NCBI GenBank assembly: GCA_963744315.1
Contig: CAVUTB010000005.1
Location: 190,794 to 254,793, forward strand
Length of the DNA stretch: 64,000 nucleotides
From: an uncultured Acidobacteriota bacterium
GTDB taxonomy: Bacteria; Acidobacteriota; Vicinamibacteria; Fen-336
Direction of reading: 5' to 3'
Positions 6,901 through 60,434 of this stretch are shown piece by piece; the stretch's first letter is position 1, and each line of letters opens with the position of its first letter. A program made the translations under genes and the position numbers. The notes below the pieces were generated by a model that saw only the letters and a program-made list of their open reading frames with translations, did not search any database and had not been told where the DNA came from.

Positions 6901-6915
6901 CTCGGTCTCCCTCCT

Positions 6916-8633: not shown

Positions 8634-8763
8634 GGGCGTCTCCTCTACTGACCGTTCTCAATCCGACTGCGCCCTTTGCGTCCGCGGCCGACCTCGTCTT
8701 GCGTCTTCCTATCAGAACTCAATTTCGGTCCACACTTACCAAGAACAGTTAAAGTCCCGGGTG

Positions 8764-9019: not shown

Positions 9020-9230
9020 CACGGGGGGGTCTGGGGGGCGAAGCCCCCCAGAACAAGGAAAGACGACACCAGCCGAGCCGCTCGGTCACCTAGCTCCATA
9101 GAACTTGAGGAGCCGAAGGGCAACGAGCGACTAGATCAACGGAAACGGATACGGCGGGAGAACCGGAAAAGGCGCGACGGCCGGGACTGAGCTTCGGGGG
9201 CGCTACTCGCCCCCCGAACCCCCCGAGGGC
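9020..9230. repeat. REP-like composite intergenic repeat, copy A (modules M1 and M2)
   Basis: M1 is GGGGGGGTCTGGGGGGCGAAGCCCCCCAGAACAAGGAAAG (7-bp G/C stem, GAA loop). M2 is AACGGAAACGGATACGG ... GGGACTGAGCTTCGGGGGCGCTACTCGCCCCCCGAACCCCCCGAGGG. Related copies occur at 15321, 17425, 19142, 33150, 43044 and 49183. Confidence 0.6.
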
Positions 9231-12692: not shown

Positions 12693-14179
12693 ATGATGGG
12701 CCGCATGGGGCGCCTCGCCGACGTCTACGCGCTGCCGCTCGCGCTCTTGACCGACCTCTACCAGCTCACGATGGCGGAGGCCTACGAAAGCACGGGCGCG
12801 CGGGCAGAACGAGGCGGTGTTCCACCTCTTCTTCCGCGCGCAACCCGTTCGAGGGCGGCTTCGCGGTGGCCTGCGGCCTCGCGCGCGCCGTCGACTACCT
12901 CGACGAGCTATCGTTTCGGCGACGACGACCTCGCCTACCTCGCGACACTCACCGGCAACGACGGCCAGCCGCTCTTCGAGCCCTCCTTCCTCCGCCAGCT
13001 CGCCGGGATCCGGCTCGGCCTGCGACGTCGACGCCATGCCCGAGGGGACGGTGGTGTTCCCCCACGAGCCGCTGGTGCGCGTGCGCGGTCCGCTGCTGCA
13101 GGCCCAGCTCGTCGAGACGGCTCTGCTCAATTTCGTCAACTTCGAGACGCTGATCGCGACCAAGGCGGCGCGCGTGACGCTCGCCGCGCGCGGCGACGAG
13201 GTGATCGAGTTCGGGCTGCGGCGCGCGCAGGGCGTCGACGGCGGGCTGTCGGCGACGCGCGCGGCCTTCGTGGGCGGCGCCAACGCGACCTCGAACGCGC
13301 TCGCGGGCCGGCTGCTGGGGCTCCCGGTGCGCGGCACCCACGCGCACAGCTGGGTGATGGCCTTCGACGACGAGACCGAGGCCTTCCGGGCCTGGGCCCG
13401 CGCGCAGCCCAACAACGGCGTCTTCCTGGTCGACACCTACGACACGCTCGAAGGCGTTCGCCGCGCCGCGAAGGCCGCGGCTCGAGCTGCAGGCGAGCGG
13501 GCACCGGGCGATCGGGATCCGCCTCGACTCGGGCGACCTCGCCTACCTGAGCATCGAGGCGCGCGCGATCCTCGACGCCGCCGGGCTTCAGTCGGTGAAG
13601 ATCCTCGCGAGCAACGACCTCGACGAGCACCTGATCGCGAGCCTCAAGGAGCAGGGCGCCAGGATCGACGTCGTGGGGCGTGGGGACGCGGCTCGTCACC
13701 GGCGGCGAGCAGGCGGCGCTCGGCGGCGTCTACAAGCTCGGCGCCCTGCGCGAGCCGGGCGGCGCGTGGCGCCACCGCATCAAGGTCTCGGAGCAGGCGG
13801 CCAAGACCTCGAACCCCGGCATCCAGCAGGTGCGGCGCTTCAGCGGGCCGGAAGGCTTCGTCGCGGACGTGATCTACGACGAGGAGAGCGGGATCGGCGA
13901 CGCGCCCGTGGTCGTCGACCCGCTCGACCCCACGCGGCGCAAGCGCATCCCTGCCGGAACGCCGTTCGAGGACCTGCTGGTGCCGGTCGTGCGCGGGGGC
14001 CGCGGCGGTCTACGACACGCCCTCGCTCGCTCGAGAGCCAGCGCCGCGCGCGCGCGCAGGTGCAGAGCCTGCACCCCGGCATCCGCCGCTTCGTGAACCC
14101 GCACCAGTATCCGGTCGGCCTGTCGCTGCCGCTGCACGAGCTCAAGACGCGGCTCGTGCTGGAGGCGAGGGGCCTGTGA
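12693..14179 (+). CDS. pncB: nicotinate phosphoribosyltransferase (about six frameshifts)
   Basis: Stitched fragments: [113 protein letters not shown]. Together they match NAPRTase end to end. Confidence 0.8.
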
Positions 14180-15322
14180 GCCCGACCCGCGTCTATCTCG
14201 ACCACAACGCGACGACGCCGCTCGACCCGGCGGCGCTCGAAGCCATGCTCCCCTACCTGCGCGAGTCCTACGGCAATCCCTCGAGCCTGCACTGGTTCGG
14301 CCAGCGCGCGCGCGCGGCCGTCGAGGAGGCGCGCGAACAGGTCGCGGCGCTCGTCGGAGCCACGGCGCCCGAGATCGTCTTCACGGCCGGCGGCAGCGAG
14401 TCGGACAACATGGCGCTGCGCGGGGCGCTCGCCGTGGCGAGCGGAGCGCGACGCAAGCTGGTGACGACCGCGGTCGAGCACCACGCCGTGCTCAACACCG
14501 CGAAGGCCCTGCGCGACGAAGGCCATCCGGTCGAGATCGCGCGCGTGGGCGAGGACGGGCGGCTCGACCTCGACGACCTGCGCGCGAAGGTCGACGACGC
14601 GACTCGCGTCGTCTCGGTGATGCTCGCCAACAACGAGACCGGCGTGCTGCAGCCGGTCGCCCAGGTCGCGCGCCTGGCTCACGAGCGGGGCGCGCTCGTC
14701 CACTGCGACGCGGTCCAGGGCGCCGGCAAGACGACGCTCGACGTGCGCGCGCTCGACGTCGACCTGCTGACGCTGTCGGCGCACAAGCTCTACGGCCCGA
14801 AGGGCACGGGCTGCCTCTACGTGCGGCGCGGGACGAAGATGGCGCCGCTCGTGCGCGGCGGGGCGCAGGAGCGCAACCGCCGCGCCGGCACCGAGAACGT
14901 CGCCGGGCATCGTCGGCTTCGGCGCCGCCGCGGCGCGCGCGCGGCAGGCGCTCGCGTCGGAGGCGCCCCGGATCGCCGCGCTCCGCGACCGGCTCGAGCT
15001 CGCCCTGCTCGAGGTGCCCGGCGCGCGGCGAAACGGGGCCGAGCCCCGCGTCGCCAACACGGCCAACGTCTCCTTCGAGGGGATCGACGCCGAGGCGCTC
15101 CTGATCGCGCTCGACCTCGAGGGCGTCGCGGCGTCGACCGGCGCCGCCTGCGCCGCGGGCGGCATCGAGCCTTCGCACGTCCTGAAGGCGATGGGGTTCT
15201 CCGCCGAACGCGTCCAGAGCTCGCTCCGGCTGTCGCTGGGACGAGGAACGACGCAAGAAGAGATCGACCGCGCCGCCGAGGTCATCGCCGTGGCCGTCGA
15301 ACGACAACGGCGCAAGACGTAA
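14176..15322 (+). CDS. iscS: cysteine desulfurase (NifS/IscS-like), one frameshift near 14905
   Basis: Class V aminotransferase. PLP lysine in [11 protein letters not shown]-terminal segment (track ORF 15014..15322) carries the active-site region [15 protein letters not shown]. Confidence 0.85.
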
Positions 15323-20290: not shown

Positions 20291-20526
20291 GCGTCCTTCG
20301 GATCATCCATGCATTCTGTTGGATGTCCGAATTCAATCAGATGGATGTCCTTTCGAATTCCCGCTTCCTCCCATGCTGATTTACAAAGACTTACGATTAT
20401 CCGACTTCGTGGCCCGAAAGCTGCAATCCCTTGGACGCATAGCGAGGCAGCCGAGCGCTCCGCAAGGAGAGTTCTGACGTTTTTCCCGTGTCGGCTGACT
20501 CGAAGACATCCAAGGAGGACTTTGAA

Positions 20527-23500
20527 ATGCGCTTGCGAAACCTCGCGGCTCTCATGGCCGCAGCGTTCCTCGCTGCCCTGCCGGTCGTCGCTCAGGAGAA
20601 CCGCGGAGCGATCGAGGGAGTGATCAGGGACGCCCAGGGCGGTGCCGTCGTCGGAGCCAGCGTGACGGCGAAGATGTCGTCCGCGCTCGAGACGAAGGGC
20701 GAAAGAGTGAGCGGCCCCGGCATCAGCGTCGTCACCGATGTCACGGGGACGTACCGCTTCCCGGCGTTGACCCCCGGCCGTTACGAGATCACCGCCGCCA
20801 TGTCCGGCTTCGCCCCGGCCAAGGTCCAGAACATCGACCTGCGCCTCGGCCAGCAGCTCACCATCGGCCTGACGCTCAACCCGGGCGGCGTGACGGAGAC
20901 CGTGCAGGTGACCGCCGACTCGCCGCTGATCGCGATCACGCAGAGCGCCCGCTCCACCTCGATCCGCAACGAGGAGATCGAGAAGATGCCGAAGGGCCGG
21001 GACTTCGTGTCGCTCGTCACCCAGGCGTCCGGAGCGAACGACCGAGCCGGCAGGGCTCGGCGAGCGCTCGGCCGCGATCATGATCGACGGCTCGTCGGGC
21101 GGTGAGAACCGCTGGATCATCGACGGCGCCGAGGCGACCAACATCCAGAGCGGCGCCCAGGGCAAGCTGATGGTCACCGACTTCGTCGAGGAGGTCCAGG
21201 TCAAGTCCTCGGGCTACACCGCCGAGTACGGCGGCTCCACCGGCGGCGTGATCAACGTGCTCTCGAAGAGCGGCAGCAACCAGTGGCGCGGCGACGCGCT
21301 CGTGTACTTCGAGTCGGACGCGCTCGACTCGGACCCGCGCCCGACGCTGCGGCTCAACCCCACGAACGACCGCCAGTCCGAGTACGTCAGCTACCCGAAG
21401 GACGAGTACAACCGCATCGAGCCGGGCTTCAACATCGGCGGGCCGATCGTCCGCGACAAGGTCTGGTTCTTCGCGGGTTACATCCCGCAGTTCCGGCCGC
21501 TCGACCGCACCGTCACGTTCCGGTCCGACGGCTCGACCAACACCTTCCGCGAGGACTTCAGCGCGAACTACCTGACCTCGAACCTGACCGCCCAGTTCGG
21601 GCCGCAGTGGCGGATGCGCGCGGCGTACAACATGGAGCAACACGAAGACCGAGGGCTCGCTGCCCGCTCTGGACGGCACCAGCAGCCCGACCCAGAGCTA
21701 CGCCCAGAATTTCGTCCGGCCGAACTGGGCGGCTTCGATGACGATCGACTACACGCCGAGCAACAAGGTCTTCATGAGCCTGCGCGGCGGGTACTACCAC
21801 AGGGACAACTACACGGAGGGCGTCTACAAGGGCGACCAGTGCAGTACTTCGGCTCGTCCGTCGGCACCCCCGGTGTGCCGCCCCAGTGGCAGCAGGCGAG
21901 CGGCTACCTGAACGTGACCACCAACAACGCCCGGTCGCGGGACAAGCAGAAGCGCTTCCAGCTCCAGGGCGACACCACGTTCTTCTTCTCGGGCGCCGGC
22001 GAGCACCAGCTGAAGGTCGGCGCGCAGCTGGATCAGATCGGCCTCGACGAGCTCACGGGTGAGCAGGGCAATCGGCTCCAGATCCGCTGGAACCAGCGCC
22101 TTCGCCGGCGAGCGCGGCGCCGTTCGGCTACTACCAGGTCCGCAGCAACGGCCGTTCCCGAACCAGGGGTTCATCACCCAGGGCGACGTGAGCGTGAACA
22201 ACCTGGGGCTGTTCATTCAGGACTCCTGGACGATCAGCCCCCGCTTGACGCTGAACCTCGGCCTGCGCACCGAGAACGAGCACGTGCCCACGTTCGTCCC
22301 CGACGACCCGACCGTTCCCGAGTACGCCATCGAGTGGGGCTTCGGCAAGAAGCTCGCCCCGCGCGCCGGCTTCGCCTGGGACGTCCAGGGCAACGGCAAG
22401 ACGAAGGCCTACGGGTCGTGGGGCGTCTTCTACGACATCTTCAAGCTCGAGCTGCCCCTCGGCTCCTTCGGCGGCCAGAAGTGGCTGGAGTACTACTACA
22501 CGCTGGACAGCGGCGACATCAGCCCGATCGTCGACAACACGGCTGTCCGCCGGCGTGCCCCGGGACGCTGCTGCGCGGACCGATCGACTTCCGCCACGTC
22601 TCGCTCGAGGGCTACGTCGACCCCGACCTGAAGCCCATGCAGAACCAGGAGATCGTGCTCGGCATCGAGCGCGAGGTGGCCGCGAACCTGTCGGTGGGCG
22701 CCCGCTGGGTGCACAAGTGGCTGGTGCGCGCGCTGGACGACACGGGCTCCGTGGACGCCCAGCAGAACGAGATCTACACCATCGCGAACCCGGGCGAGGG
22801 CCTGACGTCGGTCGCGTACTCCTTCTCCGACGGCAGCGGGACGGTCCCCATGCCCAAGCCGAAGCGCGAGTACGACGGCGTCGAGCTGACCCTCAACAAG
22901 CGCCTGTCCAACAACTGGTCGGGCCGGCTCAGCTACCTGTGGAGCCGGACGTTCGGCAACTACTCGGGCCTCTCGCAGACGGACGAGAACGGCCGCCAGA
23001 GCCCGAACGTCGGGCGCCTGTACGACTACCCGGTCATGGAGTTCGGACAGGACGGGCAGCCGGTGTACGGGGTCCTCGCCACCGACCGTCCGCACCAGGT
23101 CAAGGCCCAGTTCCTCTACGACTTCAGCTTCGGGCTGAGCGCGGGCCTCAACTGGTACGGCGCCTGGGTCTGCCGAAGTCGCGCGAGATGGGCTTCCTGC
23201 CGCCCAACAACTTCCCGGTCAACTACCTCGGGCGGAACAGCGACGGCCGCACGCCGTTCTTCAGCCAGGCCGACCTCTACGCCCAGTGGCGCCTGAAGCT
23301 GGGCGATCGCTCGGCTCTGACCTTCTCCGCGAACGTCATCAACCTGCTCGACCAGGAGACCGCGGTCAACTACTTCGCGACCGAGCACTACGGCGCCGGC
23401 GTCAACGGCGACCAGGACGCCTTCTACCGCGGCCAGATCAACTTCCAGACGGCCGCGCAGCAGCAGGGCGTGCTGACGGACGCGCGGTTCCTGAAGGACA

Positions 23501-23553
23501 ACGGCTACCAGCGTGTTCGGTCGATCCGACTCGGAATGAAGTTCAGCTTCTGA
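20527..23553 (+). CDS. Oar-like TonB-dependent outer-membrane receptor with CarboxypepD_reg domain (multiple frameshifts)
   Basis: Signal peptide MRLRNLAALMAAAFLAALPVVAQE; carboxypeptidase-regulatory-like domain (VTDVTGTYRFPALTPGRYEITA); plug/barrel fragments in 21080..23296, 22059..22631 and 22555..23553. Ends ...RLGMKFSF with a terminal aromatic residue. Strong AAGGAGGA RBS. Confidence 0.8.
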
Positions 23554-35369: not shown

Positions 35370-35405
35370 GAAGGGCGCGGGCTCGTCCCGCGCCCTTCGT
35401 CTTTC
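35370..35405 (+). terminator. intrinsic terminator after the HU gene
   Basis: AAGGGCGCGGG-CTCGT-CCCGCGCCCTT hairpin with an 11-bp stem, followed by CGTCTTTCC. Confidence 0.5.
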
Positions 35406-35433
35406 CAGAGGCCCGCGCTCGCGGATAGAGTGA

Positions 35434-38294
35434 GTGCCGATGTCCGTCACTCCCGGGGCGGCGGCGCCCCTCCCCGACGACGTCGTCGTCCGGGTTCTCG
35501 ACGTGGTGCGCCAGCTGGCCCGCGAGACCGGCGGCGCCCGCGCGGAGCGCGCCGTCGCGGCCTCGGCCTCGCTCGAGCGCGAGGTCGGCCTCGGCAGCCT
35601 CGAGCGGGTCGAGCTCGTCGCGCGCCTCGAGCGCGCGTTCGGCCGGGCGCTCGACGACGGCTGCCTCGCGGTCGACACGCCGGCGGGGCTGGCGCGGGCG
35701 ATCCTCGAGGCCGCGGCGAGCGAGCCGCTCCAGCTGCCGGCGCGCGCAACGAGCCCGGCCGGCGCGGCCCGCGCGATCGGCGACGAGGTCCTGACGCTCG
35801 GCGCGTCGCTCTTCCGGCGCGCGGAGCTCGAGCCCGAGCGCGTCCACGTGTACCTGCGCGGCGACGCGGCCGCAGCCGAGGAGGCGATCACCTACGGCCG
35901 CCTGCGCGACGAGGCCGCGGCCGTCGCGGCCGGGCTGCGCGAACGCGGCGTCGGACCGGGCGACACCGTCGCGCTGATGCTGCCGACCGGGCTCGACTTC
36001 CTGCGCTCGTTCTTCGCGATCCTGCTGGTGCGCGCGGTGCCGGTGCCGATCTATCCGCCGCTGCGGCTCGACCGGCTCGAGGAGTACGCGGCGCGCCAGT
36101 CCGCGATCCTGGCCGACGCCGGCGTCGCGCTGCTCGTCACGATCGCGCGCGCGCGGCCGGTGGCCGCCCTGCTCCGGCCCGCGGTGAAGACGCTGCGCGG
36201 ACGTCGTGACGCCCGACGAGCTCGCGCGTCCAGGGACGCCCTTCGGCCTCCCGGACGCGGAGGCGGCGGATCCCGCCTTCATCCAGTACACGTCCGGCAG
36301 CACCGGCCAGCCGAAGGGCGTGCTGCTCACCCACGCCAACCTGCTCGCCAACATCCGCGCGATCGCGGCCGGGCTCGAGCTGCGCCCGACGGACGTCGGC
36401 GTGAGCTGGCTGCCGCTCTACCACGACATGGGCCTGATCGGCTCCTGGCTGATGTGCCTGCACAACGGGGTGCCGCTCACGCTGATGCCGCCGACGGCGT
36501 TCCTGGCGCGGCCCGAGCGCTGGCTGTGGGCGATCCACGAGCGGCGCGCCACGCTGTCGGTCGGCCCGAACTTCGCCTACGAGCTCTGCGCGCGCCGCAT
36601 CACGGACGACGCGCTCGAAGGCCTCGACCTGTCGTCGTGGCGCGTCGCGCTGAACGGGGCCGAGCCGGTGAGCCCCGCCACGCTCGAGCGCTTCGCCCGC
36701 CGCTTCGCGCCGCTTCGGCTTCGCGCGCGAGGCGATGACGCCGGTCTACGGCCTCGCGGAGTGCTCCGTCGGCGCTCGCGTTTCCGCCGCTCGGCCGCGG
36801 GCCGCGGATCGACCGCGTGAGCCGCGCCGCCTTCCAGCGCGACGGACGCGCCGACGCGGCCGGCACCGAGGACGCGCGGGCGCTCGAGTTCGTCTCGGCG
36901 GGACGAGCGCTGCCGGACCACGAGATCCGCGTCGTGGACGACGAGGCGCGAGACGTCGACGACCGCGCCGTGGGCCGTCTCGTCTTCCGCGGCCCCTCGA
37001 TGACGCCCGGCTACTACCGCAAGCCGGAGGCGACCGCCGCCATCACGCTGCCCGGCGGGTGGCTCGACAGCGGCGACCTCGCGTACCGCGCGGACGGCGA
37101 GATCTACGTCTGCGGACGCCGCAAGGACCTGATCATCAAGGCCGGGCGCAACCTGGTGCCGCAGGAGATCGAGGAGGCGGCGGCCTCGGTCGAGGGCATG
37201 CGCCGCGGCTGCGTCGTGGCCTTCGGCGTGCCGAACGAGGCGCTCGGCACGGAGACGCTGGTGGTGGTCGCGGAGACGCGCGCCAGGGACGCCGTCGAGC
37301 GCGCGCGGCTCGCGGACGCCGTCACCGAGCGCGTGGCCGCGGCGGTCGAGGTGCCGCCCGACCGCGTCGTGCTGGTGGCTCCCGGCGCGGTGCTCAAGAC
37401 CTCGAGCGGCAAGGTGCGGCGCTCCGCCACTCGCGAGCAGTTCCTCGCCGGGGCGCTCGGCGGGACGCAGCGCACGACCTCGCGCAGAAGCTGCGGCTCG
37501 CGCGTGCGGCGGCCGCGGAATGGGCGCGGCCGCTCGCGCGCCGGGTCGGGCGCGGGCTCTACGCGGCCTGGTTCGCCTTGCTGCTGCCGGCGCTCCTGCT
37601 TCCGGCTGGGCGCTCGCCGTGGCTCGTGCCGAGCCGGCGCTTCGCCTTCGCGCTCGCGCGCCTGACGGCGCCGCGGCCTGCTCCGCCTCACGGGCTGCCG
37701 CCTCGAGGCGACCGGGCTCGAGCGGCTGCCGCGGCGCGGCCCGCTCGTGCTGGCCTGCAATCACGCCTCGTACGTGGACGTCGCCGCGCTGCTGGCGCTG
37801 CTGCCGATCGACGTTCTGTTCGTCGCCAAGCGCGAGATCCTGTCCTATCCGGTGATCGGCACGTTCGTGCGGCGCTGCGGCCACCTCACCGTCGACCGCT
37901 GGGACGTGCTCCAGAGCGTCGCCGACGCCGACCAGGTCGGCCCGCGCGCTCGCCGCCGGCGACAGCATCCTGTTCTTTCCCGGAGGGCACGTTCGTGGCG
38001 GCGACCGGGCTCGGCCGTTCCGGCTCGGCGCCTTCAAGACCGCGGCGCGCGCCGGCGCGCCGATCGTGCCGCATGGCCCTGCGGGGGACGCGCCGCGTCC
38101 TGCGCGGCGATCCGCGGCTGCCGCGGCCGGGCGCGATCTAGCTCTGGGTCGGCGAGCCGATCGAGCCGCACGGCACGGAGCTAACGCGCTCGTCGCGCTT
38201 CGCGCGACCGGGTCGCCGACGCGATCGCCGCCGAGTGCGGCGAGCCGCGGCTCGATCTGGTGGCGGCCGGGCCCGCCCGGCCGGCCGGAGCCTA
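35434..38294 (+). CDS. tri-domain ACP(PP-binding), fatty-acyl-AMP ligase, lysophospholipid acyltransferase (PlsC-like) protein, at least five frameshifts
   Basis: PP-binding motif (GLGSLERVEL). AMP-binding motifs YTSGSTGQPKG, PLYHDMG, GYYRKPEATAA, GWLDSGDL, VLKTSSGKVRR. LPLAT motifs NHASYVDV and FPEGT. Stitched across 35434/36206/36817/37747 and neighbouring frames. Confidence 0.75.
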
Positions 38295-47080: not shown

Positions 47081-47940
47081 GCCCAAAGCCGCGGGCAGCT
47101 GCGGGTCGGACGACCACTCGCTCCAGGAGCCCGCGTAGAGCGTCCCGCGCAGGCCGGCGAGGTGGAGCGCGAGCAGGTCGTGGCAGGCGGTGACGCCCGA
47201 GCCGCAGTAGACGATCGGCTCCTTCTGCTCTGCGCCGAGCGCCCGGTAGCGCGCGCGTAGCGCGTCGCCCGGCAGGAACACGGGCGGCGTCGCGGCCGTG
47301 AGGTTCCCCGTCCACGCAGCGTTCCTCGCGCCCGGCACGTGGCCCGCGCGCGGGTCGACCGGCTCGGCCTCGCCGCGGTAGCGCTCGCCCACGCGCGCGT
47401 CGAGCACGAGCCGTCTCGCGTGGTCCCGGACCATCTCGTCCTTCGCGACCACGAAGCCGGGCCGCAGCCGGCCTTCGAACCGGACCGGCTGGACGCGCGG
47501 CTCTTCGGTCGAGAGCGGCCGGCCCTCGGCCGTCCATTTCGCGATCCCGCCGTCGAGCACGGCGACGTCGTCGTGGCCGTGGGCGCGCAGCAGGATACCA
47601 GAGCCGCGCTGCCGATGCCGCCGGAGTTGTCGTCGTAGGCGACGACGCGAACGCCCGGCCCGATGCCGGCCTTCCCCATCACGGCCGCGACCTTCTCCTC
47701 GCTCGGCCAGGGGTGGCGGCCCGCGGAAGGCCGCGGCCGCCGCCGGGCGCCGAGAGGTCCTCGTCCATGTCGAGGAAGATCGCGCCGGGGATGTGACCCG
47801 CCCGCCAGGCGTCACGCCCCCGGCGGGCCGGATCCAGGTAGAAGCGCGTGTCGACGACGCGCAGCGTCTCGAGCGGCGACGCACCCGAAGGTCCGATCGC
47901 GCGGGCCAGCCAGCCGGTAGTCGACGAGCGCGTCCATGCC
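47072..47940 (-). CDS. 3-mercaptopyruvate sulfurtransferase / rhodanese (about three frameshifts)
   Basis: Two rhodanese domains. Active site in IVYCGSGVTACHDLLAL (the CGSGVT motif). N-terminus MDALVDYRLAG...VVDTRFYLDP. Confidence 0.7.
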
Positions 47941-47949
47941 GCCCGGGCC

Positions 47950-48748
47950 CTACTTCATCTGCGTGATCGGGTTCGGCACCTTCTTGTAGCCCTTGGCGAT
48001 CGTCGCCAGGTCGAACGCCGAGGCCGGGATCGGCCCCTTCTTGATCTCGGTCGCCTCTTTCGAGCTGTCGATGTTGCGGCCCATCATCTTGAGCGACGTC
48101 GACTCCGCGATCGTGACGCCCTCGATCTTCTTCATCTCGTCGGCCACCTTCGACAGGCCCTTGAACATCGGGTTCTGGGCCATCATGCCGGCCGAGGTGC
48201 GTGAAGGACGCGAACTTCTCGTAGTCCACCTTGGGGATCGGGAAGGCGAGCGCGGTCGTCGCGCAGAGCTTCGTGGTCATCGTCGTGCCCATCGCGATCG
48301 TGTAGTCCTGGCAGCTGTAGCCCGCGACCTGGCGCGTGCCGCCCTTCGTGACCGTCACGGAGCCGGTGGCGCCCCCCATCATCGCCTCCATCTTCTCGCG
48401 CACGGCGGGCGGCATGTTCTTCATCTGCTCGGCCATCTGATCCATCTTGGCCTGCGCCTGCTTCATCGCCGCGTCCATCTCGGCGAGCGTGACCTCGGAG
48501 TACTCCTTCTTCTTGTGGTCGATCGACGTGATCTTCCCGGCTGCGTACTCGAGGATCGTCTCGTGCTCGGCGTCCCCGGAGCGCATCTTCTCGCTCGAGT
48601 AGTAGCTCGTCGAGGTCGACGTGCCGTCCTTGTTCGTGGACTTGAAGACCAGCGTGAGGTCCTCGGCGCTCGCGGCCGGAGTGGACGCGGCGGCAAGGCT
48701 CACGGCACAGGCAGCGGCGATCAGAAACGTTCTCGTCATCGGCTCCAT
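47950..48748 (-). CDS. secreted hypothetical protein (one frameshift)
   Basis: MEPMTRTFLIAAACAVSLAAASTPAASA signal peptide after a GAGGAGG RBS. Lys/Met/Glu-rich mature part. C-terminus in 47950..48186 (MMAQNPMFKGLSKVADEMKKIEG...). Confidence 0.55.
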
Positions 48749-48845
48749 GACCTCCTCGGGAGACGCGCCGGCTCGGCGCGCCACGGAGGGTATACTCGCA
48801 CGACTGGCCGCGTTGTGCGGCGCCTCACGACGGAGGTCGAACGCC

Positions 48846-49172
48846 TTGCCCAAGCCGGAGCGTCAGCTGCTCGTCTGCGTGAACACGCGTCCGCCCGGCA
48901 ACCCGAAAGGATCGTGCGGCGAGAAGGGCAGCCAGGAGCTGTTCGAGCGCCTGAAGGAGCTGCTGAAGGAGCGCGGGCTCGACGAGCGCGTGATGGTCAA
49001 CCGCACCTATTGCCTGAAGCACTGCAGCCGCGGCCCGACCGTGGCGGTGCAGCCCGACAACGCCTGGTACGCCGGCGTCACGCAGTCCGACCTCGCCGAG
49101 ATCTGCGACGTGCACGGCAAGGGCGGCCCGCCGATCGAGCGCCTGGCGATGCCGGATATTCCGTGGGAATGA
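48846..49172 (+). CDS. thioredoxin-like [2Fe-2S] ferredoxin
   Basis: TTG start with GGAGG RBS. Cys ligands in LLVCVN...GSCGEKGS...YCLKHCSRGPTV. Confidence 0.7.
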   Translation: MPKPERQLLVCVNTRPPGNPKGSCGEKGSQELFERLKELLKERGLDERVMVNRTYCLKHCSRGPTVAVQPDNAWYAGVTQSDLAEICDVHGKGGPPIERLAMPDIPWE

Positions 49173-49658: not shown

Positions 49659-50246
49659 ATGAGGCTTCCCCCAAACATGTCGAAGATGACGATCGACGTC
49701 GTCGGCCGGCCTTTCGCGCGGACCAAGTCGCGCCTGGGAACGATCCTGCTCCTCGTGCTCGGCCTCGGTCTGCTCGGGTTCGGGCTCTGGGTCCAGGGCC
49801 TCCCCGCCTTCGTCGCGTGGCAGACGGCACGCGATCACGCGCACGGGCTCGGCGGCCGCCCGACGAGCCGCGTGTGGAGCTCGGAGCCCGCCGTCGTGAC
49901 GGCATGGCTCGAGCAGCACGGCACGCCGGTGCCGCCGCTGCCGGACCGCGCGGGCTCGGCCGGGCTCGTGGGGGCGCACTACTGCTCGCTCGTCGATCGC
50001 GTGGCCGCGCACGTCGTCTACCAGGGCGAGGAGGCGAGCGTCTCGATCTTCGTGCTGCACGGCCCCGTGCGCGCGCCGAGCGGCTGGTCGGCGAGCGTCC
50101 ACGGCGTGCACGTGCTCTTCGTGCGGGCCGCGGGCCGCGTGCTGGCGATCGTCGGCGAGCGGGACGACGACGTGCGTGCGGCCATGCGCGGCTTCGCGAC
50201 CAGCGTCGCCGCGGTTGACCCTCCACGGCCCAAGCTGCTAACTTAG
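49659..50246 (+). CDS. hypothetical single-pass membrane protein
   Basis: 195 aa. TM helix LGTILLLVLGLGLLGFGLWV. Transcribed divergently from the HTH gene and ends 13 nt before the tRNA. Confidence 0.5.
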   Translation: MRLPPNMSKMTIDVVGRPFARTKSRLGTILLLVLGLGLLGFGLWVQGLPAFVAWQTARDHAHGLGGRPTSRVWSSEPAVVTAWLEQHGTPVPPLPDRAGSAGLVGAHYCSLVDRVAAHVVYQGEEASVSIFVLHGPVRAPSGWSASVHGVHVLFVRAAGRVLAIVGERDDDVRAAMRGFATSVAAVDPPRPKLLT

Positions 50247-50259
50247 TAGTCACCCGGTT

Positions 50260-50335
50260 GGGGCTGTAGCGCAGTTGGGAGCGCGCGTGAATGGCATTCA
50301 CGAGGTCGCCGGTTCGATCCCGGCCAGCTCCACCA
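50260..50335 (+). tRNA. tRNA-Ala (anticodon GGC)
   Basis: GGGGCTGTAGCGCAGTTGGGAGCGCGCGTGAATGGCATTCACGAGGTCGCCGGTTCGATCCCGGCCAGCTCCACCA. Cloverleaf with a G3:U70 pair (Ala identity element), anticodon loop ATGGCAT, T-loop GGTTCGATCC, encoded CCA. Confidence 0.9.
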
Positions 50336-50868
50336 ACTCCCGCCAAGACCCGCTTCTGACGCTCGGTCTCTCGAGAGGACTAGCGTCTCCGAACGCAGCC
50401 GGGTCGCTTCCTTCGACACGCACATGGAGTGAGTGACATGCGCATCGGCATGCTGGGCTCTGGACTGATCGAGGCAGGCACGGGCTGGGCGGACGGCGCC
50501 GTGCGCAGCGGGCAGAGGCAGTGAATACGTGCGTGACTTCAGCTATTCGAGACGCAAGCGCGAAAGAAGCTCCAGCGGCTGGCTGACGGCGCCGGCTCAC
50601 GCGCGAGGGCGGGGCCCGGTCAATGCCGCGCTACGGGAGCCGCCGGCCGACGCGCCGACGCAGTACGGTGGCTCGCCGTCCAGCTGACCTATCGCGTGGA
50701 CGACGTGCTGGCCCAAGGCCGGAAGGGATGACTCTTTCGTCACGAGCTCGCGCCGGGCAAAGCCTTGACAGTCCCATAATTACAAACCTTACACGTCTTG
50801 AGGCAGGGCCGGGGGCCGGGGCCTCCCAAGATCCCTTACACCGCGGTGCTTAGACTAATCACACTCAT

Positions 50869-50884
50869 TGGCACGCTCCTTGCT
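50869..50884 (+). promoter_or_regulatory. sigma54 (RpoN) -24/-12 promoter upstream of the PEP-CTERM gene
   Basis: TGGCACGCTCCTTGCT is a perfect match to TGGCAC-N5-TTGCW. About 50 nt upstream of the ATG at 50937. Two CCTTACAC direct repeats sit at about 50787 and 50833. Confidence 0.6.
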
Positions 50885-50936
50885 TATAGAAGTCGGCATG
50901 CACGCGAATCGTGTCGTTCTCGACCGGGAGGTAACG

Positions 50937-51584
50937 ATGAAGAAAGTAGCATTTCGTGGCCCTCTGCGTGGGCCTCCTGGCGCCCTCCGCGTCCATGGCG
51001 GCAGTCCTCGACTTCTCGACGGGTCTGGGAGGCGCCGGCGGGACGGTCGTCAACGTCGGTGGCGGGGATGCACTGGGGTTCGACATTCGCATCGACACGC
51101 TCGTGGTGAGCGGCGCGGGGGCGTTCGACGGTGTCTACAACGTCGACGGCGCCATCGCTTGTGCGACAGGCGGAGGCGGCCAGCTGTGGCGCACTGTCGT
51201 TCGACACGTCCGCCGGAACGTTCTCCATCGTCGGGAGCGTGCCGGCTCTCGGGGTTCCGGTGACGACGCTCCTTCTCGGGAGCATCGACTCTTTCATGTT
51301 CTTCCCGATCCGCGAGTTCGGCGGCCTTGTTCGCGAGCGGCGCCGATACGAAGGACGCGCAACTGCTCACGAGCCTGGGCCTCAACCCCTCCAGCCCCTA
51401 CGCTTTCATCGCCTCCAGCCTGAGCTTCGGCCCGGCGGTGTCGTGCCCGGGCGGCACGTGCTACACGGCGATCAGCACCGACGTCCTCAACACCGAGGTC
51501 CCGATCCCCGAGCCGGGAACGTTGCTCCTGCTGGGCGGCGGCCTGCTCGGTCTGGCCCGCGGCGCCCGCAAGCGAAACGGATAG
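50937..51584 (+). CDS. PEP-CTERM exosortase-sorted protein (about three frameshifts)
   Basis: GGGAGG RBS. Signal peptide MKKVAF.ALCVGLLAPSASMAA. C-terminal sorting signal VPIPEPGTLLLLGGGLLGLARGARKRNG (PEP motif, TM helix, Arg/Lys tail) in 51327..51584. Confidence 0.7.
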
Positions 51585-51704
51585 TTCGGGCCTCGTACTC
51601 GAGACAAGACGACAGCAGGGCTGGCCAGTGAACAACGGGGCCGGCGCCCTCGGAGGGGCACCGGCCCCGAGTTGCTTGCGAGCGGGATTCTCCCTGAACG
51701 CGAG

Positions 51705-53140
51705 TCAGCCTTTCCGATCGGCCGGTGGGAGCACCTGCGCCCAGCCGAGCTCGGTCCAGTCGAGCTCCTCCTCCAGCCGCTGGAACGCCGCGTCGCCGAT
51801 GGTGCCGTCGGCGCGAAGGGCCACGAGTCGCCGCCGCTGGGCCCCGGTCGCCGCGTGCACGACGCTCGAGTCGCCGTCTGCCGGAGCCACAGGCGCCGCC
51901 ACCGTCTCCACCGTCGCGTCCGCGCCTTCCTGCGCCAATTCCTCTTCGGCGCGGCGCAGCTGCAGCGTGTAGCTCTGCCGGACGAGCGCCGCCGCCTCGC
52001 TGCGCGGGCACTCCTCGGTCGCCACCACCGCCGCGCGCAGCGCTTCCACCCTGGCTCGGCGGACCTCGCGCTCGACGGCGCCGTCGTCGTGGAGCTTCAG
52101 CCGCAGGAGCAGCGGCCGCAGCGTGAGCCCCTGGATCAGCGAGCGTTCCCAGCACCACGCCGAAGGCGGTGACCAGGATCAGGTCCCGGTAGGGAAAGGC
52201 CCCGACGCCGCCCACGCCCGTCGGGAGCGCCAGCGCGGCCGCGAGCGTCACCGTGCCTCGCATGCCGCACCACCCCACGACGGCCGCAGCTGGAACCCCA
52301 TGAGGATGAAAGCCAGCACGTTCAGCACGAACACTGCGACGCCCCAGACCGCCCACGACGGGATGCGGACCCGCGCCGGCACGACCTCGGGCGCGCGGCG
52401 CGAAGCGGCCATCGCGAAGACCACCATCGTGATGATCCCCGACAGGTGCAGCCGCTCGGCCAGCACCCAGACGGCGAAGGTCTGGCAGAACTGGAACACG
52501 ATCGCCGTCGGGACGTCGCTGATGCGCGCGTTGATGGCGAGCAGGGGCCTCGCGAGCACCAGCCCGAGCGCGATGCTGCCCAGCGTGACCACCAGCAGCG
52601 TGGGCAACACGCTCCAGCCGGAAACGAAGCCGCTCACCGTGGCGGCGACGGCCAGGCGGTAGACGATGAGCGCGCTCGCGTCGTTGAAGAGGCTCTCCCC
52701 TCGAGGATCACGAGCAGACGGTGCGGCGGGCGGAGCTGCTTGAGCACGGTGGTGGCGGCCGCCGCGTCCGGCGGTGCCACGATCGCACCGAGCGCGATCG
52801 CGGCGGCCCAGGGCATGTCGGGCACCAGCAGGCGCACGACAACGGCGACGACGGCGATCGTCAGCGCGACCGCTCCGAGCGCGAGGCTCGCCACCTGGCG
52901 CCAGGTGGCGCGCAGGTCGCGCGGCGAGGCGTCGAAGGCGGCGTCGACCAGCACGGGCGCGACGAACAGCGCGAGCGCGAGCTCGGGATCGAGCACGAGC
53001 GTCGGCATGCCGGGGAGGAGCGCGAGCGCGGCGCCGGCCAGCGCCACCAGCGCCGGGTACGGTGCGCCGAGCCGTCGCGCCACGGCGGCGAGGACCGCGC
53101 CGCCCAGGAGCAGCGCGACGACGACCTCGAAAACGGCCAT
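51705..53140 (-). CDS. Na+/H+ antiporter, CPA1/NhaP family (about three frameshifts)
   Basis: Fragments 52634..53140, 52248..52637, 51487..52356 and 51705..52049 together give a 10-12 TM exchanger (ESLFNDASALIVYRLAV-like block) plus a cytoplasmic C-tail. Confidence 0.8.
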
Positions 53141-53302
53141 GTGTGCCTAGAGGCTACACCCGGCGCCGGTACGCCAAACGATCCTCTTGCGATGCTTACA
53201 GTTGCACGACGTGCATAGGCGTTACTCACTTTCCGCGAAGCTGGCGTTGCGTGACTGTAATCACGGAGACACACGCCATGAAGCGGATACCATGACCCGA
53301 CT

Positions 53303-55222: not shown

Positions 55223-55445
55223 CGGCTGACGGTCGATGCGAAGCGCCTGCTCACTCCTGCCTCCAGTCCGCGTTCGCTCAGGGCGGTTGTCGGATCTTAC
55301 GGCCGAACCGGGCGATGCCCGCCTGCAATACTACAACGCGTCGAACCGCATTCGACACGGCGGGTCCTGCAGCGCGTTCGACACGGGCTTGCAGGCCTTG
55401 GCTCAGTGGCACATCCCTTGCTCCTCGTAGCGTGGAGCGGGCGAC

Positions 55446-55637
55446 ATGAGATTTGCCAGTCTGTTCCTGGTCGGATACGCCGTCTTCCTCGCCGGTGTGG
55501 CCGCAGCCCTCTGGAAGCTGGGCGTCCTGGAGCGCGTGGGTGCGGAGTGGACGGGGATCGGATTCCTGATCGCCGTGGGAATCGGAGTGATGCTGGCGAT
55601 CGGCGGTCGCCGAGCGATCGAGATCGACCGCTCCTGA
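55446..55637 (+). CDS. hypothetical small two-TM membrane protein
   Basis: 63 aa, two hydrophobic helices, high GC3. Confidence 0.35.
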   Translation: MRFASLFLVGYAVFLAGVAAALWKLGVLERVGAEWTGIGFLIAVGIGVMLAIGGRRAIEIDRS

Positions 55638-55721
55638 TCACACCGGCGGACTGAGGCGAGGCGCGCTCGAGACGCGGTACCATCGAGCAGAGCGATCCCG
55701 CTCACTCCAGGTGCCCTCCGC

Positions 55722-57391
55722 ATGAAACGACTGATTGCCGCCGTCTTCGCGACTGCCCTCGCCTCGCCCGCCTTCGCCGCGCTGCCGACCCCCGACAAGG
55801 ACGACGGCGCCATCAAGCTGCCGCCCGGCTTCCGCGCGCTCGTCGTGGCCGACGACCTCGGGCCGCTGCGCTTCATGACGGTGGCGGCGAACGGCGACGT
55901 CTACGTCAAGATGCGGACGGTCGGCATCATCGCGCTCCGCGACGCCGACGGCGACGGACGCGCCGAGATCCGCGCGGCCTTCGGCACGGGCGGCGGCACC
56001 GGCATCGCGCTGCGCGACGGCTGGCTCTACAGCTCGACCACCAGGCGGTCTACCGCTACAAGATGACGGCGGGCGAGCTCGTCCCGAAGGGCGACCCCGA
56101 GCTCGTCGTCTCGGGGCTGCCCGACGAGAACCAGCACAACTCCAAGTCGTTCGCGTTCGACGAAGCCGGCCAGCTCTACGTCGAGGTGGGCTCGCCGTCG
56201 AACTCCTACGGATCGCCCGACCGCGCCAAGGGCGCCAAGGGCCAGGACCCGACGGAGTTCCTGAAGACGCACGGCGGCTTCTGGCGCTTCGACCCGAGCA
56301 AGCCGAACCAGACGCAGGCCGACGGCTACCACTTCTCGACCGGCCACCGCCACGTGCTCTCGATCGCACGCAATCCCGTCTCGAAGGCGTTCTTCGTCGT
56401 GATGATGGGCCGCGACCAGCTCAACACCGTGGCGCCCGAGCTCCTACAACGACGACGACAACGCCGAGGCGCCCGCCGAGGAAATGCACGTCCTGCGCGA
56501 GGGCGGCAGCTTCGGCTGGCCGTTCACGTACTTCGACCCGCGCAAGAAGGCGCGCATGGTGGCGCCCGAGTACGGCGGAGACAACCAGAAGCGCGCGGAG
56601 GCCGGGAAGTACCCCGACCCGCTGGTCGCGTTCCCGGCGCACTGGGCGCCGCTGCAGATGGCGTTCTACGGCGGCGACCAGTTCCCGGCGAAGTACAAGG
56701 GCGGCGCCTTCGTCGCGTTCCACGGCTCGTGGAACCGCGCCCCCGTCCGCAGCGCGGCTACAACGTCGCCTTCGTCCCGTTCGGTGCGAGCGGCATGCCG
56801 AGCGGCGGCTACGAGGTGTTCGCCGACGGCTTCGCGGGCAAGGACGAGTTCACGTCGACGCGCGACGCACGCTTCCGGCCGTCCGGCCTCGCCGTCGGAC
56901 CGGACGGCTCGCTCTACGTCGCTGACTCGGAGAGGGGCCGCATCTGGCGGATCGTCTACACGGGCGAGGCGCCAGCGACGCCTGCACCCGGCGCGTCGGC
57001 GGACGCGACGGCCGCCGGTGCCCCGGCTCGCGCTGCGACGGCCACCACCGCGCCGGCCGCGAGCCAGGAGCCGGGTGCTGTGACCTACCTCGCTCTCTGC
57101 GCGGCCTGCCACATGGCCGACGGCAGCGGCGTGCCGAACATGCAGCCGGCGCTCCGGGGCAGCGGGTTCCTCGCGAGCGACGCCACGACGCTCATCCGCC
57201 TGCTGCTGTTCGGCCCCGACAAGGTGCTGCCGGCGAGCCGTCCACGCTACGAGAATCCGATGCCGGAGCTACAGGGAATGCTGAGCGACCAGCAGGTCGC
57301 CGACGTCCTCAACTACGCGCGGCGGACGTTCACCGGAACGACCTCCGCGATCGAGGCCAGGGACGTCGCCGCGCAGCGCGCCAGGCCCTAG
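55722..57391 (+). CDS. PQQ-dependent sugar (glucose/sorbosone) dehydrogenase fused to a C-terminal cytochrome c domain (about two frameshifts)
   Basis: Signal peptide. Beta-propeller GSDH blocks (LPPGFRALVVADDLGPLRFMTVAANGDVYV, GGFWRFDPSKPNQ, LAVGPDGSLYVADSERGRIWRIVY). Ala/Pro linker, then heme motif CAACH with a downstream Met ligand region. Confidence 0.75.
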
Positions 57392-58216: not shown

Positions 58217-59842
<1,626 letters not shown>

Positions 59843-59850
59843 CTAGCCTC

Positions 59851-60138
59851 TTAACCCATCACCGCGAGGACTTCGTCCTCGCGAACGATCACGACTTCCT
59901 CGCCGTCGATCTTGATCTCGGTCCCGGAGTACTTGCCGAACAGGACCCGGTCCCCCACCTTCACGTCGAGGGCCACCTTCTTCCCGTTCTCCAGCACCCG
60001 GCCGTTGCCGACCGCCAGCACCTTGCCCTGCATCGGCTTCTCTTTCGCCGTGTCGGGGATGATGATGCCGCCCTTGGCGGTCTCCTTCTCCTCGATCCGG
60101 CGGACCAGCATGCGATCGTGAAGCGGTCGTACCTTCAT
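59851..60138 (-). CDS. groES: co-chaperonin GroES
   Basis: 95 aa. [14 protein letters not shown]...[13 protein letters not shown] mobile loop. Confidence 0.95.
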
Positions 60139-60434
60139 GGCTTTCCATCTCCTATCGGGCGAAGCCCGGCTGCGTTCGGGTATCCGGCGGGACTCGGCAC
60201 CAGGACGAGCGCCGGCTCAGCCGTAGCACTCGCGATCACCTGCGCCAGAGTGGGGGCCTGTCGGCTGCGGACGAGGAGCGTGGTAGCGACCGCCGCCCCC
60301 ATCAGGCCGACCGCCAGGATGGCGGTCCAGAAGATGCCGTCGGGAACCACGATGGCCCACACGAGCGCCACCAGCGCGACGAGTCCCGCGCCTTGCGCCC
60401 AGCGGCCGAAGGTGTCCGACGTCATCATTCTCAT
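60135..60434 (-). CDS. hypothetical small two-TM membrane protein, translationally coupled to groES
   Basis: 99 aa. GAGAGG RBS. About 85% GC3 over the first 85 codons. Two TM helices ([14 protein letters not shown]; [20 protein letters not shown]). Stop overlaps the groES ATG (ATGA); its last codons double as the groES RBS. Confidence 0.45.

Follow-up and report, generated by a model that had tools for sequence, protein, structure and literature searches.

The pepA gene of Aquincola tertiaricarbonis RN12 and Zoogloea resiniphila MMB is a floc PEP-CTERM gene that depends on RpoN and on PrsK/PrsR. pepA is RpoN1-dependent, and its start site has been mapped (PMC9850573). The control exerted by PrsK, PrsR and RpoN in Zoogloea has also been summarized (PMC9012009). 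Haft et al. 2006 (PMC1569441) described a pair of motifs, referred to here as the PEP-CTERM box, that was seen only in Proteobacteria and before single-gene PEP-CTERM operons. Motif 1 is 17 nt long, ends in TTTACA, is sometimes repeated, and is the predicted PrsR site. It is followed by a spacer of 62.8 +/- 10.6 nt (range 32-92) and by motif 2, a sigma-54 motif that lies ~71 nt (SD 38) before the ATG.

The window is a 64-kb stretch of DNA from an Acidobacteriota-like soil host, probably a member of the Vicinamibacteria. It contains a PEP-CTERM gene whose locus is probably a monocistronic, enhancer-dependent (sigma-54) transcription unit that encodes a secreted surface protein with a PEP-CTERM tail, a reading that is given a probability of roughly 0.75. 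The locus appears to belong to the sigma-54 PEP-CTERM box arrangement known from Proteobacteria, and it reveals no new mechanism. As in that arrangement, the gene stands alone behind a long non-coding region, a sigma-54 motif is found 52 nt before the ATG, a conserved box ending in T-ACA(G) is positioned 74-78 nt before the sigma-54 motif, and the box can be duplicated. The candidate for motif 1 in the window, ...AAACCTTACA, ends 75 nt before TGGCAC. Unlike the published cases, the host is not a proteobacterium, the box reads AAAyCTyACAG and not ...TTTACA, the window lineage has lost the 5' half of the box by a 13-nt deletion, and PrsK, PrsR and PrsT are not seen within the window. The window gene resembles pepA: each encodes a small secreted PEP-CTERM protein and has a sigma-54 promoter of the TGGCAC type, upstream of which an enhancer is predicted. 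However, its protein belongs to another family (NF033554 floc_PepA gives 26.4 bits, mostly from the tail, where the cut-off is 80), and neither prsT nor an EPS cluster is adjacent to it.

A functional sigma-54 promoter before the PEP-CTERM gene is strongly supported by sequence comparison. The -24/-12 element TGGCAC-GCTCC-TTGCT (TGGCACGCTCCTTGCT) occupies 50869..50884 on the + strand. Its GG (50870-50871) and GC (50882-50883) are exactly 10 nt apart, as a sigma-54 promoter requires. The element had been called a perfect RpoN consensus, and this is confirmed: it matches TGGCAC-N5-TTGCW at every position, and the longer consensus yTGGCACG-N4-TTGCW fits as well. Two perfect sites are present in the 64-kb window, compared to 0.01 expected from shuffles, and both are on the coding strand shortly 5' of gene starts. 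The distance to the ATG, given earlier as about 50 nt, is 52 nt on the same strand with the ATG placed at 50937. Among related loci, TGG[CT]AC-N5-TTGC is found 66-97 nt 5' of the start in 24 of 32, and the background for this pattern is 5 matches in 303,883 strand-positions. Between -160 and -30 of homologous genes, the pattern is enriched ~390-fold. The recurrence of the element, with little change in its distance to the start, upholds the core claim of the earlier note, that a sigma-54 promoter drives the PEP-CTERM gene. The related loci have 12 sequence versions of the -24/-12 element, in which the five-base spacer is free to vary (11 different spacers). Among 12 diverse upstream regions that are otherwise unalignable, no columns other than GG-AC and TTGC are invariant. 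In tandem paralogue pairs, each gene is preceded by its own perfect sigma-54 site. No sigma-70-like promoter was detected between 50200 and 51800, and no known RNA element was found upstream of the PEP-CTERM gene. The 5' leader folds no better than shuffles (z = +0.6).

In the proposed mechanism, sigma-54 RNA polymerase would bind the -24/-12 element at 50869-50884, where both the element and its conservation are observed. The polymerase would remain closed until an AAA+ enhancer-binding protein opens the complex, and transcription would begin near 50895, a position predicted on the basis that start sites usually lie ~12 nt past the GC. The activator would most likely bind a Box 1 / Box 2 module at 50772-50795, ~75 nt before the -24 element and ~110 nt before the start. 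Most plausibly, it would be a PrsR-type response regulator of the NtrC family that works with a PrsK kinase encoded elsewhere; a prsKR-linked homologue, the resemblance of the motifs and the published work all point to an activator of this type. The mRNA would carry a leader of ~42 nt with a GGGAGG ribosome-binding site. The 214-aa product would be exported by the Sec pathway, would have an all-beta fold and a C-terminal PEP-CTERM helix, and is expected to be processed by an exosortase.

The PEP-CTERM gene spans 214 codons at 50937..51584 on the + strand. Its Shine-Dalgarno sequence, GGGAGG (50926..50931, +), is located 5 nt before the ATG, and CCGGGAG is kept in 10/10 promoters of the alignment. 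The first part of the protein, encoded at 50937..51000 (+), is a predicted Sec-type signal peptide, MKKVAFVALCVGLLAPSASMA, with the putative cleavage site directly before AV. It is recognized from sequence features and from a helix over residues 3-14 in an AF2 model, and it is conserved in homologues. The C-terminus, VPIPEPGTLLLLGGGLLGLARGARKRNG (51498..51581, +), is a PEP-CTERM sorting domain, as had been recognized before. PF07589 covers residues 188-211 with a score of 26.1 (cut-off 20.7), and TIGR02595 covers residues 189-212 with a score of 20.1 (cut-off 16). The AF2 model of the family (pLDDT 90.6) is composed of the signal helix, an all-beta domain over residues 23-186, and a transmembrane helix over residues 192-213. 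As modelled, the product is a secreted all-beta protein of 214 aa with a PEP-CTERM tail.

The gene had been treated as an ordinary single gene. This does not hold, as single-base insertions at 50951, 51178 and 51307 break the frame three times in 648 nt, and it is therefore not one open reading frame. When the extra bases are removed, the result is an intact 214-aa protein that is 86% identical to intact 214-aa homologues. The extra bases are somewhat likelier to be assembly errors than real mutations. It is doubtful, though to be taken seriously, that the gene is instead a true pseudogene and that the promoter is an intact relic driving a dead frame in a locally decaying region by the tRNA-Ala gene. 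Three frame-breaking insertions in so short a gene agree with decay, as does the state of its neighbors: a 196-nt stretch is missing at 52287 from the adjacent Na+/H+ exchanger gene, and only a remnant is left of the NAD-binding gene upstream. The dN/dS against the related contig L005 is 0.56, a value that suggests moderate purifying selection only. In addition, errors are unevenly distributed along the window, as some of its long genes are intact (GroEL of 541 aa, a 698-aa phosphatase, and a 584-aa kinase). However, frame switches are spread over many unrelated window genes, and two relatives on long contigs, L001 and L002, carry single-base insertions of their own in this gene, different from those of the window, with one insertion at a column that both share. 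In contrast, the JGI contig L005 and the homologous proteins P0001-P0003 are intact. The window sequence can be aligned in full beyond each of its three insertions and shows no build-up of stop or missense decay. As read from these alignments, the pattern of indels among relatives fits sequencing technology and not biology. The many single-base indels of the window matter for any annotation made from it.

The PEP-CTERM gene is preceded by a conserved promoter block at 50759..50936 (+), which agrees with L001, L005 and L002 at 155-156 of its 178 positions. Its left boundary is sharp: directly 5' of the block, identity falls to 76-78% and the alignment is gapped. A run of 34 consecutive columns, AAAGCCTTGACAGTCCCATAATTACAAACCTTAC, is invariant in four close sequences. 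Box 1, TCCCATAATTAC (50772..50783, +), has the family consensus TCCCAwAAkTAC and is nearly invariant in a MAFFT alignment of 10 promoters that represent about five independent lineages. Box 2, AAACCTTACACG (50784..50795, +), has the consensus AAAyCTyACrG and is the candidate enhancer (UAS). It is conserved in 10/10 promoters and keeps a constant distance of 74-78 nt from TGGCAC, although the spacer sequence has diverged. Box 3, GCTTAGAC (50848..50855, +), aligns with CACTTACGGC / CACTTGCGAC in the paralogues of the same alignment, 13-21 nt before the -24 element.

A matrix derived exclusively from sites outside the window places the 10-mer AACCTTACAC third among 128,000 window positions. With the full 18-mer matrix, Box 2 of the window reaches no more than 2.6 bits (rank 44). 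The 5' half of the motif-1-like 18-mer, 13 nt (GTyGTCrGG), is missing from the window lineage, and this deletion butts Box 1 against Box 2. The best match of the full 18-mer matrix (47296-47313, minus strand, 16 bits) falls within a rhodanese gene at about chance level and was discarded. A de novo motif search over all clades returned GAyGAGwAAAGTCT. This motif is specific to clades of 40-47% identity and absent from the window group, and it was rejected as an explanation of the locus.

The link to PrsK and PrsR that the earlier note drew finds support of an indirect kind only, from a homologue of the window protein. This homologue, P0095 (L036/L037), belongs to the same protein family (41% identity, E = 1.4e-28) and comes from a MAG labelled 'Deltaproteobacteria'. 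Its gene is directly downstream of prsK-prsR, whereas the window gene is isolated beside tRNA-Ala. In L036, PrsK scores 432 bits with TIGR02916 (cut-off 300) and PrsR scores 545 with TIGR02915 (cut-off 502.6); the nearest relative of this PrsR is a Candidatus Binatia protein. Like the window gene, the prsKR-linked gene has a sigma-54-type site, TGGCAC-N5-TCGCA, located 64 nt before its ATG, with TTTACAG elements and two copies of ATTTTACAG upstream. It differs from the window in its -12 element (TCGCA) and in the spacer between enhancer and promoter, which at 113 nt from TTTACAG is beyond the 32-92 range of Haft et al. The layout of this locus fits the motif 1 / motif 2 scheme of PMC1569441. 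The longer Box 2 of the relatives, TGTCGGGAAACCTCACA, agrees with the element upstream of the prsKR-linked homologue at 13/17 positions, and a match of this quality between the Acidobacteriota paralogue site and the prsKR-linked site has a shuffle p of ~0.001.

It is also conceivable, at somewhat less than an even chance, that the promoter is sigma-54-dependent but that another, possibly lineage-specific, enhancer-binding protein and not PrsR reads Box 1 / Box 2. The window group is without the GTCGGG half that its relatives have in common with the prsKR-linked locus, and Haft et al. reported motif 1 in no organism outside the Proteobacteria. Among the best 120 relatives of the L036 PrsR, most are unnamed, those with names include Binatia and Thermodesulfobacteriota proteins, and none is labelled Acidobacteriota. 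A clade of 45% identity has a receiver-less activator (327-337 aa, Sigma54_activat) in synteny 6-7 kb away, and the element conserved upstream in this clade is another one, GAyGAGwAAAGTCTGCGCC, at positions -126 to -148. On the other hand, Box 2 ends in yACAG, as motif 1 ends in TTTACA(G), and it does so at the published distance. The 13/17 match and the physical linkage of one family member to prsKR also argue for PrsR.

No GAFTGA or RpoN-box motif was detected in the 64 kb of the window itself, and tblastn gave no match there to PrsK, PrsR or enhancer-binding proteins, with two activators among the queries. The two histidine kinases encoded downstream had been judged not to be obvious PrsK proteins, and the family searches agree. 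TIGR02916 is not among the 25 best families of either kinase, and their best matches are TorS- and PhoR-type. No exosortase was found among the Pfam-scanned ORFs of the window, a scan that covered the frameshift-broken stretches in part, and no exosortase or EPS genes were found within +/-10 kb of the homologues in L001, L033-L035 and L038-L040.

It is tentatively proposed, at a little under even odds, that the PEP-CTERM box circuit operates also in Acidobacteriota (Vicinamibacteria-like). There it would control a whole family of single-gene PEP-CTERM operons, often in tandem duplicates, through an enhancer at a fixed distance of ~75 nt, and the window enhancer would have been remodelled by the 13-nt deletion, in which the two boxes were fused but stayed perfectly conserved. 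The -24/-12 site and the phased upstream box provide a comparatively validated cis-regulatory model for a family of surface proteins in uncultured soil Acidobacteriota. This suggests that sigma-54 control of PEP-CTERM and exopolysaccharide-associated proteins may span more phyla than the floc-forming Proteobacteria. The model also supplies a search pattern for the regulon: Box 2, then 74-78 nt, then TGGCAC-N5-TTGC.

The 8-mer CCTTACAC occurs in two exact copies, about 105 and 58 nt before the predicted start. The earlier note reported direct repeats at about 50787 and 50833 and took both for enhancer sites. Two copies are present, with the second located at 50834..50841 (+). The first (50787-50794) is included in Box 2 and, as part of a box that diverged paralogues conserve 74-78 nt from the -24 element, stands as a putative enhancer site. 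The second is not a conserved element, and the claim fails for it. An A at 50840 is a window-only insertion that creates this copy; relatives read CCCTTAC-CCACGG at the position, and CCCTTACCC is found there in three of them. The second copy aligns with unconserved sequence in the paralogue promoters L003, L045 and L046. It is improbable that the two copies are a matched pair of half-sites for an enhancer-binding protein. The exactness and placement of the repeat favor such a pair, as does the pattern CTTACRS, which was set post hoc and occurs five times in the window, three of them upstream of the two sigma-54 promoters. However, the second copy requires the window-only base and, at 27 nt from the -24 element, is unusually near for an enhancer. 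When the 169-nt region is dinucleotide-shuffled, 15% of the shuffles contain some exact 8-mer direct repeat, and 68% of real window tiles of 169 nt also have one, so the repeat is not statistically meaningful. Because such repeats are common by chance and the second copy results from the insertion, the direct repeat was rejected as evidence.

Least probable is that the match to the consensus arose by chance and does not act as a promoter, a reading that agrees with the absence of an rpoN gene from the window but is effectively refuted by the comparative data, given 0.01 perfect sites expected per window, the ~390-fold enrichment before homologous genes, and GG and GC that are invariant between variable spacers.

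The other perfect sigma-54 site of the window, TGGCACATCCCTTGCT (55407..55422, +), belongs to a separate unit at 55407..55638. Behind it is the gene for a 63-aa membrane protein (55447..55638, +). The site is kept in L001 with a changed spacer, and L042, which encodes a 58%-identical homologue of the 63-aa protein, has TGGCATGGTGGTTGC at -112. To judge from its sequence, this second site suggests that the genome uses sigma-54. An enhancer common to both window promoters was considered and rejected, as they share no 7-mer in direct orientation. The similarity in CTTACRS and in the half-matrix, found post hoc, is the sole link between the two promoters and is suggestive only.

The tRNA-Ala gene (anticodon GGC; ARAGORN; Rfam tRNA, 63.2 bits) does adjoin the locus, as reported before, at 50260..50335 (+). 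A variable region has this gene as its left boundary, and homology to L001 stops 9 nt past the gene. The 600-nt 'intergenic' stretch that follows consists mostly of the decayed remnant of an NAD-binding / F420-oxidoreductase-like gene (50426..50755, no strand assigned). In blastn, the remnant aligns with parts of L001 9041-9732 at 76-78% identity and with numerous gaps. Its counterpart in L001 is an intact gene for 259 aa (9053-9832), and L001 has 4.9 kb of additional genes between the tRNA and this counterpart. The whole of 50336..50936 had been described as AT-rich. This is true of ~50700-50900 only (GC 0.58-0.62 vs 0.707 for the window) and not of 50336-50700 (0.65-0.70). On the other side of the PEP-CTERM gene, a G+C-rich hairpin (51636..51669, +) lies between convergent genes. 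It was uncalled by a consensus terminator scan and is a possible terminator without a U-tract. The RNA fold of 51585-51700 has an energy of -55.3 kcal/mol (z = -2.5).

By its sequence, the region upstream of the PEP-CTERM gene is a predicted enhancer-dependent sigma-54 promoter whose architecture is that of the published PEP-CTERM box. The -24/-12 element TGGCACGCTCCTTGCT at 50869-50884 (+) is a perfect match to TGGCAC-N5-TTGCW, as the earlier note had read it. A pattern search of the 64-kb window found two perfect sites (50869-50884 and 55407-55422), where dinucleotide-preserving shuffles predict 0.01. Only the perfect sites stand out, because the window is not enriched once up to two mismatches are allowed (13 sites observed, 15 expected). 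A scan of 50200-51800 detected no sigma-70-like promoter. Transcription is predicted to start near 50895, and the ATG at 50937 has GGGAGG just upstream.

To assess conservation, 32 loci encoding relatives of the PEP-CTERM protein at 37-86% identity were gathered. A site was counted when it matched TGG[CT]AC-N5-TTGC with at most one mismatch and with GG and GC fixed. In 24 of the 32 loci such a site is present, at positions -66 to -97 relative to the gene start. Elsewhere in the same loci the pattern matches 5 times over 303,883 strand-positions, so the site is enriched ~390-fold. Of the eight loci that lack it, four are truncated by a contig end, among them L012, which begins mid-motif. There are 12 distinct versions of the site with 11 different spacers, that of the prsKR-linked locus L036 included. 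When 12 diverse upstream regions were aligned with MAFFT, the invariant columns were GG, AC, TTGC and one single C further upstream. In the tandem paralogue pairs of loci L045 and L046, one perfect site lies 58 nt 5' of the ATG of each gene. This is strong comparative evidence that 50869-50884 would work as a sigma-54 promoter. Tandem pairs are frequent in the family (L045 4009-5582; L046 3001-4587; the contigs encoding the homologues P0021/P0033), each gene has its own sigma-54 promoter and upstream boxes, and several pairs adjoin a MacB/FtsX-type ABC permease gene.

The upstream boxes were defined by aligning ten promoters from ~5 independent lineages: the window, its close relatives L001, L005 and L002 (with it, the window group), the paralogue loci L003 and L006, and both genes of L045 and L046. 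Box 1 (TCCCAwAAkTAC, 50772-50783) lies directly 5' of Box 2 (AAAyCTyACrG, 50784-50795). The distance from the end of Box 2 to TGGCAC is 74-78 nt in 10 of 10 promoters despite diverged intervening sequence. Promoters outside the window group have 13 extra nt (nnGTyGTCrGG) between the boxes and thus an 18-mer, yGTCrGGAAAyCTyACAG. With an enhancer matrix trained on non-window sites only, the window 10-mer AACCTTACAC ranks 3rd of 128,000 positions; the full 18-mer matrix gives only 2.6 bits at the window site, as the 5' half is missing from the window group. The top window match to the 18-mer matrix, GGACGGGGAACCTCACGG at 47296-47313 (-) with 16 bits, was rejected as an enhancer, since it sits within a rhodanese coding region and ~2 such matches are expected by chance.

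Two direct repeats had been proposed as enhancer sites, and half of this proposal survives. The repeat CCTTACAC does occur in two copies, at 50787 and at 50834 (noted before as about 50833). Exact 8-mer repeats are common in stretches of 169 nt: 15% of shuffled sequences and 68% of real tiles have one. The first copy falls within Box 2. The second copy contains a window-only inserted A at 50840, reads CCCTTACCC in L001, L002 and L005, and is opposite unconserved sequence in the paralogue promoters.

Proteobacterial PEP-CTERM genes have a 17-nt motif 1 that ends in TTTACA and is sometimes repeated, followed after 62.8 +/- 10.6 nt by a sigma-54 motif and ~71 nt to the ATG (Haft et al. 2006; PMC1569441). 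This motif 1/motif 2 arrangement co-occurs with PrsK/PrsR/PrsT (PMC1569441). RpoN dependence has been shown, and the start site mapped, for an Aquincola PEP-CTERM gene (PMC9850573), and a Zoogloea PEP-CTERM gene has been shown to depend on PrsK/PrsR (PMC9012009). The layout predicted here is the same, in an Acidobacteriota-like lineage instead of a proteobacterial host, and would extend the published architecture of an already known kind of system to that lineage. The homologue P0095 (41% identity) is encoded directly downstream of genes for PrsK (TIGR02916, 432.5 vs a cut-off of 300) and PrsR (TIGR02915, 545 vs 502.6), both NCBIfam equivalogs. Upstream of the P0095 gene lie TGGCACGGCTTTCGCA and two copies of ATTTTACAG. 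The prsKR-locus 17-mer CGTCGGGAAATTTTACA is identical at 13 of 17 positions (shuffle p ~0.001) to TGTCGGGAAACCTCACA of the Acidobacteriota paralogue L003/L006, positioned 78-79 nt from the -24. Because of this match, the Haft layout and the rank of the 10-mer, the first repeat is plausibly the 3' part of a motif-1-like candidate enhancer. In the window lineage, this candidate enhancer may be a PrsR site. Among the best 120 matches to a PrsR query, the named ones include Binatia, Thermodesulfobacteriota and Desulfobacterales proteins, and none is labelled Acidobacteriota.

The 64-kb window was searched for GAFTGA and RpoN-box motifs, for a second PEP-CTERM ORF and, by tblastn, for relatives of PrsR and of another activator; none was found. 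No exosortase was found among the window ORFs scanned, or within 10 kb in any inspected relative. Neither downstream histidine kinase is an obvious PrsK, as previously suggested: both resemble it in the generic ATPase part only, and the 25 best families listed for each do not include TIGR02916. Distant clades (40-47% identity; L007, L008, L013, L014, L019, L020 and L022) share a non-coding element, GAyGAGwAAAGTCTGCGCC(n)AGGTGCC, 126-148 nt upstream of the -24, which is absent from the window group; a different activator may use it as its enhancer. In L033-L035 and L038, a sigma-54 activator that lacks a receiver domain is encoded in a syntenic position at a distance of 6-7 kb.

The PEP-CTERM coding region is not one ORF as sequenced: the signal peptide, the middle part and the C-terminus are each encoded in a frame of their own. 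When aligned with three close relatives, the window shows three single-base insertions that they do not have, placed at 50951, 51178 and 51307 by pairwise alignment with L005. Their removal gives an intact 214-aa protein and stop. Homology searches used a manually spliced reading that differs from this repair only around residues 123-129. Along its entire length the spliced protein shares 86% identity with intact metagenome proteins of 214 aa, and its family has at least 126 clusters, mostly of ~215 aa. In this reading, the tail passes the cut-offs of PF07589 (26.1 vs 20.7) and TIGR02595 (20.1 vs 16). The identification as a PEP-CTERM gene holds, with the correction that the gene as sequenced carries three frameshifts, and so does the main interpretation, a sigma-54 promoter in front of it. 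An AlphaFold2 model of the family (alignment A4, modelled sequence P0001; pLDDT 90.6, pTM 0.79) predicts a signal helix at the N-terminus, followed by an all-beta domain (23-186) and, at the C-terminus, a TM helix (192-213). The modelled passenger is an uncharacterised beta domain, as Foldseek against the PDB gave no credible structural analogue. A G+C-rich 14-bp hairpin (GGGGCCGGCGCCC...GGGGCACCGGCCCC, 51636-51669) with no U-tract lies 50 nt past the stop codon between two convergent genes; the surrounding 116 nt have a fold z of -2.5.

The three frameshifts are somewhat more probably sequencing or assembly errors than marks of a true pseudogene. According to the GC3 frame track, many unrelated genes throughout the window switch frame on the same strand, and a three-way alignment of 3.15 kb holds 17 private 1-2-nt indels in the window, 3 in L001 and 2 in L005. 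The gene is intact in the JGI contig L005 and in proteins P0001-P0003, whereas L001 and L002, which derive from very long contigs of 794 kb and 140 kb named in the contig_N style, each have their own extra bases in it. Real decay, the slightly weaker explanation, would fit the dN/dS of 0.56 against L005, the 196 nt missing at ~52287 from the neighbouring Na+/H+ exchanger gene (51705-53146, -) but present in L001 and L005, and the decayed remnant, at 50426-50755, of an NAD-binding gene whose intact form is present in L001. Single-base indels occur in the exchanger gene as well, which is convergent with the PEP-CTERM gene, at 52139, 52696 and 53142. Same-strand frame changes occur, for example, at 47950-48853 (-), 55722-57391 (+), 20443-23550 (+), 35401-37981 (+) and 12991-15241 (+); the genes that switch frame include a DUF4412 gene, a PQQ/TrAA12-cytochrome c dehydrogenase, a TonB-dependent receptor and an AMP-binding enzyme. 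GroEL, a 698-aa HAMP-SpoIIE phosphatase and a 584-aa hybrid kinase are intact. The pattern points to patchy single-base assembly indels or widespread gene decay.

The closest relatives are uncultured Acidobacteriota MAGs, and a protein family common to them and the window has a member labelled Vicinamibacteria. L001 is syntenic with the window at 90-97% nucleotide identity and has 4.9 kb of extra genes between tRNA-Ala(GGC) (50260-50335) and the PEP-CTERM gene. The window lacks these 4.9 kb, and its 600-nt "intergenic" stretch is mostly gene remnant. The AT-richness ascribed to 50336..50936 is real but confined to around 50700-50900 (GC 0.58-0.62; window mean 0.707). Conservation returns sharply at 50759, and 155-156 of 178 positions of the promoter block are identical. 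The variable region adjoins tRNA-Ala (window 50336-50758; L001 4108-9832). In L001 it encodes a TPR/TolB_N protein, a 182-aa ORF, a solute-binding protein and the intact NAD-binding gene; the window retains only 76-78%-identical NAD-binding fragments, and L002 even less. The remaining window is ordinary chromosome (pilMNOPQ, glpX, acyl-CoA dehydrogenase, HAMP-SpoIIE phosphatase, groES/groEL, two kinases). The intact type IV pilus assembly cluster (pilM, pilN, pilO, secretin pilQ; 3279-8657, -) and the intact groES-groEL (58220-60216, -) provide a housekeeping context.

The second perfect site, TGGCACATCCCTTGCT, belongs to a unit at 55407-55638 (+) and lies 24 nt 5' of the ATG of a gene encoding a 63-aa two-helix membrane protein. 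The protein belongs to a small family of 36 clusters, in which one member is labelled Vicinamibacteria. L001 retains the site with an altered spacer and has a MacB/FtsX-type ABC permease gene inserted beside the 63-aa gene; L002 lacks the whole unit. Direct repeats (CGCrTTCGACACGG) lie upstream of the gene at 55347 and 55373. The homologue in L042 (58% identical) has TGGCATGGTGGTTGC at -112 and, upstream of its gene, two copies of CAGAGCACG.
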